Source: a plasmid
Direction: 5' to 3' (one strand)
DNA: 64,000 nucleotides
NCBI RefSeq assembly: GCF_988243305.1
Contig: NZ_OZ547137.1
In this document: piece after piece, positions 7,430 to 48,745 of the stretch
Numbering within the stretch: position 1 is the stretch's first letter
Layout: the number at the start of each line of letters is the position of its first letter
The notes under the pieces: model-generated
What the model was told of the DNA's origin: nothing
Databases searched by the model: none
Seen by the model: the letters and a program-made list of their open reading frames with translations, nothing else
Made by a program: the position numbers and the translations under genes

Positions 7430-7633
7430 TCTTCAGCTTACGGGCTATCTGACGATGTGACCAGCAGTATGGTGGCAAAGCCATATCAGTCCTTTCTCTT
7501 TGAGTTCACCTAGCATTGTTATCTCCTTAAAAAATTGAGGCGACAACTATGCTGACACAGAGGGTTATTGATCTTACCCAGCAATAGTGGACACGCGGCT
7601 AAGTGAGTAAACTCTCAGTCAGAGGTGACTCAC

Positions 7634-7933
7634 ATGACAAAAACAGTATCAACCAGTAAAAAACCCCGTAAACAGCATTCGCCTGAATTTCGCAGTGAAG
7701 CCCTGAAGCTTGCTGAACGCATCGGTGTTACTGCCGCAGCCCGTGAACTCAGCCTGTATGAATCACAGCTCTACAACTGGCGCAGTAAACAGCAAAATCA
7801 GCAGACGTCTTCTGAACGTGAACTGGAGATGTCTACCGAGATTGCACGTCTCAAACGCCAGCTGGCAGAACGGGATGAAGAGCTGGCTATCCTCCAAAAG
7901 GCCGCGACATACTTCGCGAAGCGCCTGAAATGA
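7634..7933 (+). CDS. insE: IS3 OrfA (InsE)
   Basis: [31 protein letters not shown]... matches E. coli K-12 IS3 InsE as I recall it. Confidence 0.95.
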
Positions 7934-8796
7934 AGTATGTCTTTATTGAAAAACATCAGGCTGAGTTCAGCATCAAAGCAATGTGCCGCGTGCTCCGGGT
8001 GGCCCGCAGCGGCTGGTATACGTGGTGTCAGCGGCGGACAAGGATAAGCACGCGTCAGCAGTTCCGCCAACACTGCGACAGCGTTGTCCTCGCGGCTTTT
8101 ACCCGGTCAAAACAGCGTTACGGTGCCCCACGCCTGACGGATGAACTGCGTGCTCAGGGTTACCCCTTTAACGTAAAAACCGTGGCGGCAAGCCTGCGCC
8201 GTCAGGGACTGAGGGCAAAGGCCTCCCGGAAGTTCAGCCCGGTCAGCTACCGCGCACACGGCCTGCCTGTGTCAGAAAATCTGTTGGAGCAGGATTTTTA
8301 CGCCAGTGGCCCGAACCAGAAGTGGGCAGGAGACATCACGTACTTACGTACAGATGAAGGCTGGCTGTATCTGGCAGTGGTCATTGACCTGTGGTCACGT
8401 GCCGTTATTGGCTGGTCAATGTCGCCACGCATGACGGCGCAACTGGCCTGCGATGCCCTGCAGATGGCGCTGTGGCGGCGTAAGAGGCCCCGGAACGTTA
8501 TCGTTCACACGGACCGTGGAGGCCAGTACTGTTCAGCAGATTATCAGGCGCAACTGAAGCGGCATAATCTGCGTGGAAGTATGAGCGCAAAAGGTTGCTG
8601 CTACGATAATGCCTGCGTGGAAAGCTTCTTTCATTCGCTGAAAGTGGAATGTATCCATGGAGAACACTTTATCAGCCGGGAAATAATGCGGGCAACGGTG
8701 TTTAATTATATCGAATGTGATTACAATCGGTGGCGGCGGCACAGTTGGTGTGGCGGCCTCAGTCCGGAACAATTTGAAAACAAGAACCTCGCTTAG
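7930..8796 (+). CDS. insF: IS3 OrfB (InsF), DDE transposase domain
   Basis: 288 aa [30 protein letters not shown]..., overlaps insE by ATGA. Confidence 0.95.
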
Positions 8797-8955
8797 GCCT
8801 GTGTCCATATTACGTGGGTAGGATCATATTACCCGATCTCGATGGACGTTATTGAGTGATCTCCTTCCATGAAGCTCGCCACGGGAATATCTGCGGCAGC
8901 GGGCCAGTAATGGGGTAAGTGATAGAGTTAACTCTGTGTTTTATGTGGGGATGAT

Positions 8956-9185
8956 ATGGAATTAAAACAAGACATCGAAAAAGAGATTATAAAATTAATA
9001 ATATCAGAATACATTAGTACACTTTATTATATACATCTAATTGTACAATTGATGTATAACAAAAGAAGGAAGTAAAATATCATTAGAAATGAACTCATAT
9101 TTCTTGAGAGAGACGTTAATATATCAGTAAAGTGCAAGGATATTCAGGAAGGACGTATATCGCAATCAGATTAAACAGCGCTTGA
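8956..9185 (+). pseudogene. degenerate aggR-like 5' fragment
   Basis: Nucleotide-level similarity to aggR 22100-22330 (ATGGAATTAAAACAAGACATCGAAAAAGAGATTATAAAA... vs ATGAAATTAAAACAAAATATCGAAAAAGAGATTATAAAA...), with indels and stop codons. Confidence 0.7.
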
Positions 9186-46262: not shown

Positions 46263-46914
46263 TTCATACCTCCAAGAAAGCTGGTTATAATTTCATTCAT
46301 CTTTTTGAAGTCCAATGGGGCTCCAGGAGTAAAAACCACATCAACATTGGAATAATCACGGAATTTATCAAGGAATAGGTCTTTAGCCGCCTCATTGTAA
46401 GCGAATATAACAATTTTGAGCGTGGCGTTTCGCAGTGCTTTCTTGGTAAGAGTTTCAATATGCTCATCCGCAAAAGAAAATCCGAAAACTATAAGCAAAG
46501 AGCCTTCTTTATCCAGCTCATTTGAATAAGTCCGTAGCAGGTCGTAATACACGTTTTCAAGTAAGGTTTCACGAAATTTATCCTTTCGCGGCAGAACCAG
46601 TTGATGTGACATAACCCAGTCCTGCTTCTCCTTTGGTGTATTGAACGCAACTGGCTTCATATCCTTAATGGAATAATAGATTTCCTTATCATAGCTATGC
46701 CAAGAAAGGGAACCATGCAGCTTGATGAGATTCACCGTAGGTAGTTCCACGCTGTAATTATAAAGGTTCCCGGTTGCGTGTATGGTCTGATAAAAACATT
46801 TGGTATCGAATACTGTCCGGTTGTAAATATCGGCGCGCTGACGGAATCCTGATCTTACCCAGCAATAGTGGACACGCGGCTAAGTGAGTAAACTCTCAGT
46901 CAGAGGTGACTCAC

Positions 46915-47214
46915 ATGACAAAAACAGTATCAACCAGTAAAAAACCCCGTAAACAGCATTCGCCTGAATTTCGCAGTGAAGCCCTGAAGCTTGCTGAACG
47001 CATCGGTGTTACTGCCGCAGCCCGTGAACTCAGCCTGTATGAATCACAGCTCTACAACTGGCGCAGTAAACAGCAAAATCAGCAGACGTCTTCTGAACGT
47101 GAACTGGAGATGTCTACCGAGATTGCACGTCTCAAACGCCAGCTGGCAGAACGGGATGAAGAGCTGGCTATCCTCCAAAAGGCCGCGACATACTTCGCGA
47201 AGCGCCTGAAATGA
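46915..47214 (+). CDS. insE: IS3 OrfA (InsE)
   Basis: Translation identical to copies 1 and 2. Confidence 0.95.
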
Positions 47215-48077
47215 AGTATGTCTTTATTGAAAAACATCAGGCTGAGTTCAGCATCAAAGCAATGTGCCGCGTGCTCCGGGTGGCCCGCAGCGGCTGGTAT
47301 ACGTGGTGTCAGCGGCGGACAAGGATAAGCACGCGTCAGCAGTTCCGCCAACACTGCGACAGCGTTGTCCTCGCGGCTTTTACCCGGTCAAAACAGCGTT
47401 ACGGTGCCCCACGCCTGACGGATGAACTGCGTGCTCAGGGTTACCCCTTTAACGTAAAAACCGTGGCGGCAAGCCTGCGCCGTCAGGGACTGAGGGCAAA
47501 GGCCTCCCGGAAGTTCAGCCCGGTCAGCTACCGCGCACACGGCCTGCCTGTGTCAGAAAATCTGTTGGAGCAGGATTTTTACGCCAGTGGCCCGAACCAG
47601 AAGTGGGCAGGAGACATCACGTACTTACGTACAGATGAAGGCTGGCTGTATCTGGCAGTGGTCATTGACCTGTGGTCACGTGCCGTTATTGGCTGGTCAA
47701 TGTCGCCACGCATGACGGCGCAACTGGCCTGCGATGCCCTGCAGATGGCGCTGTGGCGGCGTAAGAGGCCCCGGAACGTTATCGTTCACACGGACCGTGG
47801 AGGCCAGTACTGTTCAGCAGATTATCAGGCGCAACTGAAGCGGCATAATCTGCGTGGAAGTATGAGCGCAAAAGGTTGCTGCTACGATAATGCCTGCGTG
47901 GAAAGCTTCTTTCATTCGCTGAAAGTGGAATGTATCCATGGAGAACACTTTATCAGCCGGGAAATAATGCGGGCAACGGTGTTTAATTATATCGAATGTG
48001 ATTACAATCGGTGGCGGCGGCACAGTTGGTGTGGCGGCCTCAGTCCGGAACAATTTGAAAACAAGAACCTCGCTTAG
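47211..48077 (+). CDS. insF: IS3 OrfB (InsF)
   Basis: Translation identical to copies 1 and 2. Confidence 0.95.
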
Positions 48078-48745
48078 GCCTGTGTCCATATTACGTGGGT
48101 AGGATCATCCATCATTCAGAATGACGTTGTTATTTTTAACCGCTGCATCCTCAATGAACAAATCATAGTTAGTCGTAAAGAGGTTGATACGCCGCGGTAG
48201 CAATCCAGTCCGCCGCCTCGTCAGAAGCATTTCTAATGCACGCATGAGCTTCGCGTAGTTGTTTTGTGTCGATACGACATCATCTATTAAAGTAGGAAGG
48301 ATTACCTCTGCGGGCAAGCTTCGCTTCAGGAGGACGTTGTTTGCCTTCCATACATTGTCCAGAAAAGACTCAGATTTACTGAAGTATTCATCATCCTTTC
48401 CGGCGCGGACCAGAGCCTCAAGCTCGCTTTCAATATCACCTAACACGCTGATTGCAGGCAGCGATGCTCCTGAGCCAATGATGAAATTGATGTTTGCTGA
48501 TTGAAATATGCGCTCAAAATATTCACGATCTCTGTCCTGCCCGTAGTAAGCCCGATAAGTCGCCACGCTGTGCCTTTCCTTAAATATCGTAGATAAGATG
48601 TATCTTACATGTTTCAACAAGTGATGCATCCTGTTTAAATTTCATTCTCTGACTCATATACAAACGCAGCTAAACGAATCAGGTAGGTAGTTTCATTGCT
48701 TCCGGCTTCACCAGAAACCGGATCTGACCTAGAAAAGAGAAAGAG

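Follow-up and report, generated by a model that had tools for sequence, protein, structure and literature searches.

Insertion sequences (ISs) of the IS3 family transpose by a copy-out/paste-in route, in which replicative excision generates a circle whose element ends lie 3 to 4 bp apart and which is then integrated (PMC2909936). Because transposition proceeds in this manner, the donor copy is kept and the copy number rises. Chromosomal IS3 copies have been seen hopping into plasmids within approximately 60 generations (PMC10379815). Three copies of IS3 are present on the plasmid segment analyzed here, a stretch of 64,000 nucleotides (nt) of contig NZ_OZ547137.1 (assembly GCF_988243305.1), referred to below as the window. 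When compared to E. coli IS3 (InsE/InsF; K-12 copies IS3A to IS3E), these copies have the same length, ends, frameshift motif, and 3-bp target site duplication (TSD), at 100% sequence identity. The element itself is, therefore, no different from known IS3; what is new is its locations, all three sites being vacant in the complete records searched. We propose that three canonical IS3 insertions, independent of one another and very recent, very probably accumulated in a stepwise fashion on a pAA-type plasmid of enteroaggregative Escherichia coli (EAEC), in the order copy 2, copy 1, and copy 3.

Identity and flanks of the three IS3 copies

Copies 1, 2, and 3 are located at positions 7569 to 8826, 14799 to 16056, and 46850 to 48107, respectively, all on the + strand and each 1258 bp in length, and pairwise comparison revealed 0 differences among them; their InsE/InsF translations are identical because the underlying DNA is identical. 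The copies lie in direct orientation, with start-to-start distances of 7230 bp (copies 1 and 2), 32051 bp (copies 2 and 3), and 39281 bp (copies 1 and 3), and no other repeat family reaching 200 bp exists in the window, where the same repeat scan detected no long inverted repeats. Each copy is bordered by a matching triplet, namely TAT for copy 1 (7566 to 7568 and 8827 to 8829), AAC for copy 2 (14796 to 14798 and 16057 to 16059), and TCC for copy 3 (46847 to 46849 and 48108 to 48110); the random chance of all three pairs matching is (1/64)^3. The corresponding empty sites, in which the left flank, a single triplet, and the right flank are contiguous, were found in pE1246_1 (NZ_CP025574.1) for site 1 (single TAT, ...GGGTTATTACCC...) and site 2 (single AAC, ...GAGGTAAACAGGATG...) and in both CP058026.1 and pAST81_1 for site 3 (single TCC, ...ACGGAATCCATCATT...). 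The first-pass annotation, which was made from the window sequence, had described three identical 1258-bp copies in the same orientation, with identical InsE/InsF products and matching flanking triplets, and this description is upheld. So is its claim that the copies are independent simple insertions whose flanks have not been scrambled by inter-copy recombination, as each has its own intact TSD and an exact empty counterpart; the survey of related plasmids which it suggested returned such empty sites for all three positions.

As judged from its sequence, the element is canonical E. coli IS3, intact and predicted to produce its DDE transposase via a -1 frameshift. Its termini read TGATC...GATCA, and its inverted repeats on the left and right, which are imperfect, approximately 40 bp long, and of the TG...CA type, agree at 28 of the first 40 positions. 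The first open reading frame (ORF), orfA, specifies 99 amino acids (aa), or 102 if translation begins at a GTG codon, and overlaps at ATGA with the 288-aa orfB, which is in the -1 frame; an A-AAA-G slippery motif (AAAAG) is found at IS position 328. Pfam searches with orfA and orfB of a 0-mismatch IS3 in GCA_046369965.1 returned HTH_Tnp_1, HTH_21, rve, rve_2, and rve_3, and PGAP annotates the identical sequence as the programmed-frameshift IS3 transposase WP_085947771.1.

The element is, furthermore, widespread. Searches were conducted against PLSDB (72,556 plasmids), with each IS3 plus 1.5 kb of flank per side serving as the site query, and against 5,426 RefSeq complete E. coli genomes, and closer relatives were found by exact-protein look-ups in draft and read-set assemblies. 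An IS3 query matched 2683 PLSDB records, 801 of them at 99% identity or above, and the copies of the window are 100% identical over 1258 bp to annotated copies ("IS3-like element IS3 family transposase") in 15 listed plasmids. Approximately 86% of the complete E. coli genomes match an IS3-containing query, at a median of four places per genome. The IS3 copies of p55989, GCA_042930775.1, GCA_046369965.1, and GCA_016655525.1 show 0 differences from those of the window, and the copies in pAST81_1 and in the pAA plasmid of IAL7252 are 1 base off. Because unrelated plasmids such as p55989 hold a 100% identical IS3, zero divergence among the three copies cannot date their insertion.

Occupancy of the sites in relatives and the probable order of insertion

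In PLSDB, no record was found with any of the three sites occupied at a query coverage of at least 80%, and dozens match the empty sites exactly across 2997 bp; likewise, neither site 1 nor site 2 is occupied in any of the 5,426 complete genomes. Two sets of apparent carriers were rejected. Plasmid pAST81_1, the one apparent site-3 carrier among the complete genomes, covers 100% of the site-3 query, and mapping places its IS3 elsewhere, with site 3 empty; the match of the pAA plasmids of IAL7252, LSC52, and UPEC69 starts exactly at the left terminus of copy 1, and their IS3 sits at a different site, within an IS630 remnant, with TSD ATT.

Site 1 is empty in five near relatives compared over 11.6 to 13.3 kb, four of which show 0 mismatches and one a single mismatch, and site 3 is empty in five relatives differing by 0 to 1 mismatch over up to 21.8 kb; all three sites are empty in the draft contig ABZPVY010000029.1. 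Since empty-site relatives thus differ by 0 to 1 mismatch over 12 to 22 kb, the insertions postdate practically every point substitution on the plasmid, and the recency ascribed to them in the first-pass annotation holds, no PLSDB or RefSeq complete record having any of the sites occupied.

Partial occupancy was observed in the draft and read-set assemblies. Precisely at site 2, both GCA_042930775.1 and GCA_046369965.1 contain a 0-mismatch IS3 that agrees with copy 2 in orientation, AAC TSD, and both junctions, whereas their site 1 is empty. Within this region, no relatives are nearer than these two (0 to 1 mismatch over 18 kb), which have in common with the window a 3-bp TGT indel (2418 to 2420) that other close relatives do not have. 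Assembly GCA_016655525.1 carries an identical IS3 with the left junction of site 1 as in the window, and site 3 must be empty in it because its SIR2 gene, the target of copy 3, is intact. For site 3, Logan contigs of ERR15423954 run 29 nt into both ends of copy 3 and a Logan contig of ERR15422816 enters its right end, in each case 100% identical to the window. In GCA_052135155.1, contigs stop 1 to 2 nt from sites 1 and 3, the break at site 1 falling at 7567. Because no ORF crosses the junctions of site 1 or 2, junction-specific protein look-ups were impossible at these sites. As lineage markers, the AatD V65 (341 index blocks) and AatC S97 (1644) variants proved to be too widespread and exact AatP too broad (2208 index blocks); the loci returned by the AatD and AatC look-ups nevertheless led to the copy-2 carriers. 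A 331-aa variant of the hypothetical protein encoded at 2269 to 3264 marks a clade that occurs in 86 index blocks.

The likeliest order, being the most parsimonious, is copy 2 followed by copy 1 and then copy 3. Each copy would have arrived by its own insertion event, making its own 3-bp target duplication, with the element being copied out as a circle that integrates elsewhere as the donor copy stays in place; the insertions would have built up one after another within a sampled lineage, a process that two local hotspots would have favored. Several points weigh against this proposal. IS3 has targeted sites 1 and 2 recurrently, and shared junctions could in principle represent independent hits, which would weaken the order. 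The order was derived from sites 1 and 2 in the copy-2 carriers GCA_042930775.1 and GCA_046369965.1, from site 3 in ERR15423954 and ERR15422816, and from sites 1 and 3 in GCA_052135155.1, whose evidence consists of contig breaks at the junctions rather than of IS3 sequence. The source of each hop could have been either another plasmid copy or one of the chromosomal IS3 copies present in most E. coli strains.

The recurrence of sites 1 and 2 can be seen from two further insertions. In p55989 (NC_011752.1, 34120 to 35377), a 100% identical IS3 is inserted in the reverse orientation and has an intact TSD of its own, ATT, 1 bp from the TAT of the window at site 1. A metagenome scaffold (ENA ERZ28643606, 5294 to 6551) carries an IS3 variant with 6 mismatches, also in the opposite orientation, whose TSD, GTA, directly abuts the AAC of the window at site 2. 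The two sites are, therefore, demonstrably recurrent IS3 targets, with independent insertions 1 bp and 3 bp away. By our estimate, approximately 0.004 to 0.01 near-coincident pairs are expected (assuming about 36 event pairs on a plasmid of about 70 kb), and the occurrence of two is far beyond chance. Site 1 is a near-palindrome, GGGTTATTACCC, which contains TTACCC, a motif of IS3 ends; beyond this motif at site 1, no convincing target motif was shared across all IS3 insertions seen.

IS911, another member of the IS3 family, prefers targets resembling its own ends, and work from the Chandler laboratory reportedly described its targeted insertion next to sequences like its inverted repeats. Comparable features here are that sites 1 and 2 have each been struck twice within 1 to 3 bp, in a context resembling IS3 ends or IS3-family ends, whereas the likeness of site 1 to the IS3 inverted repeats amounts to a 5- to 6-mer and site 3 has no such motif. 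In contrast to such targeting, IS3 insertion in plasmids has been reported as largely random (PMC10379815). We regard it as conceivable, though rather doubtful, that IS3 targeting is non-random here and that sites 1 and 2 are hotspots defined by sequence or structure, the first as a near-palindrome with the TTACCC motif and the second as the left end of another IS3-family element, hit time and again by independent events in different EAEC lineages; that a preference for end-like sequences might cause their recurrence is speculation by analogy. If this were so, aat would repeatedly come to lie between IS3 copies and would tend to be deleted, amplified, or mobilized as IS3-aat-IS3, and an IS911-style targeted insertion would exist in nature for IS3 itself.

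The first-pass annotation had seen in the three copies the signature of a recent transposition burst. A single burst private to this plasmid, in which one active IS3 gave rise to all three copies almost simultaneously, with matching junctions elsewhere representing either the same strain resequenced or hotspot hits, is improbable in our assessment. It would be in keeping with copies that are 100% identical and have all three TSDs intact, and with the lack of any complete record with an occupied site; the hotspot character of sites 1 and 2 makes independent hits possible, and the samples that share copy 3 might, given their 100% identity to the window, stem from one and the same strain. Identity is uninformative on this point, however, given that unrelated IS3 copies are identical also, and the hits that are demonstrably due to hotspots differ in offset and orientation, so that exact coincidence favors descent. 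In GCA_042930775.1 and GCA_046369965.1, copy 2 recurs with identical base position, orientation, and TSD, on the closest backbone and together with a shared indel, yet site 1 is empty there, and GCA_016655525.1 combines the left junction of site 1 with an intact SIR2 gene. The distances of 0 to 1 SNP and the shared indel already suggest that the relatives with copy 2 only and with copy 1 only are members of one plasmid lineage. The new copies are, moreover, not all absent from the closest relatives, as copy 2 and the left junction of copy 1 are each shared; only relatives that are slightly more distant or were sampled differently lack all three, although the empty-site relatives do place them as recent against point-mutation divergence. 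What is not retained from the earlier reading is accordingly the single episode, since copy 2, the left junction of copy 1, and copy 3 are each shared with different assemblies, which argues for stepwise accumulation.

The direct copies 1 and 2 bracket a discrete cargo, the aatPABCD operon, as they would in a composite transposon, IS3-aatPABCD-IS3, entering as one unit. This reading is already refuted by the empty-site relatives and retains next to no credibility: the outer flanks, TAT on the left and AAC on the right, form no duplication and each IS3 has its own TSD, dozens of relatives hold aat in the same context with neither IS3, and two have copy 2 only. It is equally hard to credit that an assembly or polishing artefact collapsed, duplicated, or misplaced a repeat and so produced falsely identical or wrongly placed copies, since, although assemblers are well known to err at identical multicopy repeats and polishing can homogenize copies, every insertion shows a precise 3-bp duplication with a matching empty site and independent assemblies contain five of the six junctions (both of site 2 in GCA_042930775.1 and GCA_046369965.1, both of site 3 in ERR15423954, and the left one of site 1 in GCA_016655525.1), the right junction of site 1 being the one not seen in independent assemblies.

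Surroundings of the copies and disruption of the SIR2 gene

By its gene content, the host of these insertions is a pAA-type EAEC virulence plasmid combined with a RepB backbone. Between copies 1 and 2, the aat segment shares 99.9% identity with pAA plasmids, p55989 among them, and the 16- to 40-kb region of the window contains aar, aap, aggR, and AAF/I genes. Around copy 3, the backbone is of the RepB type, carries genes for ParA/ParM, CcdAB, SIR2-HerA, and Abi-like products, and matches other plasmids (CP058026.1 and pAST81_1); the same pAA/RepB mosaic is present in the draft contigs ABZPVY010000029.1 and DADBWX010000021.1.

The dispersin-export operon aatPABCD (9494 to 14422, - strand), bracketed by copies 1 and 2, comprises aatD (9494 to 10705), aatC (10717 to 11346), aatB (11339 to 12160), aatA (12057 to 13295), and aatP (13292 to 14422), the annotation being taken from relatives. 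Copy 1 falls between genes, 665 bp after the stop codon of aatD and 230 bp from a truncated transposase remnant. Copy 2 lies 376 bp upstream of the aatP ATG, within the left end of an IS629-like IS3-family remnant and 6 bp ahead of the ATG of the remnant orfA (16063). Between aatP and copy 2, approximately 270 bp from the IS3 end, is the AggR-dependent aatP promoter (AggR site and -10 element; 14492 to 14530, - strand), which shows 3 mismatches to the AggR-dependent aatP promoter of strain 042 (sequence from PMC6392122). Copies 1 and 2 have thus landed in non-functional IS debris, and the aat promoter is untouched. An old IS3-like left-end remnant of 109 bp, comprising the left inverted repeat and the start of orfA (14639 to 14747, + strand; 93.6% identical to IS3), has the orientation of copy 2, ends 52 bp from it, and is also found in relatives with site 2 empty.

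Downstream of aatD, approximately 240 bp (8939 to 9180) are about 85% identical to the aggR-start region of the IAL7252 pAA plasmid (14806 to 15058) and may represent an aggR-like gene fragment. In the pAA plasmids of the Brazilian O3:H2 outbreak, represented by that of IAL7252 (NZ_JBRFVK020000002.1, 3288 to 9999), aat is flanked by two inverted IS1A copies, an arrangement that parallels the IS-flanked aat of the window but differs in the IS family involved (IS1A versus IS3). Further along, umuC (38645 to 39773) is truncated or frameshifted, with a 297-aa ORF that corresponds to positions 1 to 289 of the 422-position UmuC profile and is followed by a DUF4113 fragment; two short-read assemblies of the copy-3 lineage end contigs within this region, at 39497 and 39740.

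Unlike the other two, copy 3 interrupts a gene. It splits the SIR2 gene after codon 153, leaving an N-terminal fragment (codons 1 to 153; 48108 to 48566, - strand) whose stop codon, TGA, is provided by the last three IS3 bases (48105 to 48107) and a C-terminal fragment (codons 154 to 348 plus stop; 46259 to 46846, - strand) cut off from the start codon and promoter. In silico removal of IS3 and one TCC restores a 348-aa ORF which is identical to the CP058026.1 homolog and matches PADLOC SIR2 (PDLC04080) over its full length (6e-163); the first-pass claim that one IS3 copy had inactivated a SIR2-like gene is in this way substantiated. Downstream, with a 4-nt overlap between the adjacent genes, an intact 602-aa ORF encodes the partner HerA-type ATPase (44454 to 46262, - strand; PADLOC HerA PDLC04097, 1.8e-221), which is annotated as "ATP-binding protein" in relatives. 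The 153-aa N-terminal product is called in two other assemblies; a look-up of the 163-aa C-terminal SIR2 ORF gave no match on record.

The known SIR2-HerA system relies on the Sir2 NADase for defense (PMC11514289, PMC11472057), and the window has the same adjacent operon genes with full-length PADLOC matches. It differs in that the effector ORF is not intact, being split by copy 3, and the system is predicted to be non-functional; because the known system depends on that activity, copy 3 should likely abolish SIR2-HerA anti-phage defense. This loss is deduced from gene structure, a further point to be held against our account of copy 3. An intact SIR2-HerA pair is present in, for example, GCA_051315045.1.

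Disruptions of this gene pair were also observed elsewhere: in pAST81_1 (NZ_AP043642.1, 10307 to 12905), SIR2 is disrupted by two IS1A copies, and in Klebsiella plasmids, SIR2 or SIR2-HerA has been struck by IS903B and ISKpn26, which suggests recurrent inactivation of SIR2-HerA in related plasmids by different IS elements. In the window, the pair has as neighbors KfrA-like and DUF2971 genes and one that is Abi_C/AbiJ-like (50927 to 51667; PADLOC AbiJ, 3e-9), and the set as a whole (44454 to 52768) looks like a small defense island next to the RepB replicon.

Deletions, other mobile elements, and implications

Since the three copies stand as direct repeats, the DNA lying between any two would be lost upon their recombination, and the first-pass annotation had pointed to copies 1 and 2 as a substrate for deletion or amplification of aatPABCD. 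A deletion of this kind, bordered by IS3 and 25.3 kb in length, is indeed present in the near-identical GCA_016655525.1, where IS3 keeps the left junction of site 1 and then abuts window position 34160 (deletion end, 34160 to 34162) inside aggC (33450 to 36032, - strand). Window positions 8827 to 34159 are missing, and with them aatPABCD, aar, aap, aggR, aggA/B, and part of aggC. The flanks of this IS3, TAT and TTT, form no matching duplication, and either recombination with another IS3 copy in aggC or an IS-adjacent deletion may account for the loss. IS-driven losses and rearrangements of virulence plasmids as well as of chromosomes are on record for EAEC, an example being the IS1A-adjacent fliR deletion of the O104:H4 strain 1070/13 (PMC11950199). 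The IS in GCA_016655525.1 retains one original flank and abuts the deletion, the usual mark of IS-adjacent deletion or of recombination between two IS copies, but the element is IS3 rather than IS1 and the loss concerns the core EAEC virulence module. A second deletion variant of this plasmid, in which IS3 is not involved, was noted in GCA_012304885.1 and SRR7371282. Here, approximately 32 kb (window 5650 to 37933) comprising the whole aat/aggR/AAF region is gone, and the resolvase gene (37570 to 38181) is fused to a group II intron reverse transcriptase (RT) ORF across a 16-bp overlap, producing a chimeric 189-aa Resolvase+GIIM ORF.

At least seven distinct IS3 insertion sites were found in this plasmid family. 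The earlier view of IS3 as the currently active element is, therefore, supported insofar as IS3 is active in the family, but IS3 is not uniquely so, since IS1A, an IS5-like element, IS256, ISEc43, and Tn3-family elements have moved in sibling plasmids. Similarly, the statement that all other IS types are fragmentary agrees with the IS110, ISL3/IS21, IS66, IS630, and IS3-family remnants tested, but it passes over a group II intron with a full-length RT ORF. The IS110 ORF of the window has no N terminus, the IS66 pieces are partial, and annotation in relatives treats the IS3-family and IS630 remnants as pseudogenes; an IS66-family element runs off the left edge of the window and is, for that reason, only partly assessable. 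The group II intron (5313 to 6997, - strand) contains an intact 450-aa RT/maturase ORF with a full-length TIGR04416 match, along with Rfam D1-D4 domains (6711 to 6997), with no match to domain V/VI reaching the Rfam gathering threshold; its RT is a pseudogene or split in several relatives, including pE1246_1. A 539-aa ORF at 30303 to 31922 (- strand) has the full ISL3 transposase profile, interrupted in frame by an embedded segment of approximately 100 aa that derives from an IS21 transposase N terminus, and is a chimeric transposase, presumably dead.

IS3 and all of the mechanisms involved are already well known, and the main value of these observations is descriptive. The window and its relatives represent a natural time series, from no copies through copy 2 only and the copy-1 lineage to all three, and document the knock-out by an IS of a plasmid-borne SIR2-HerA phage-defense gene. 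Both the two small IS3 hotspots and the IS-disrupted SIR2-HerA pair call for caution in the use of IS presence or absence as a lineage marker. For EAEC, finally, aggR, aap, and aat are the markers by which typical strains are defined and diagnosed, and IS3-bordered loss of these genes can turn a typical EAEC plasmid marker-negative.

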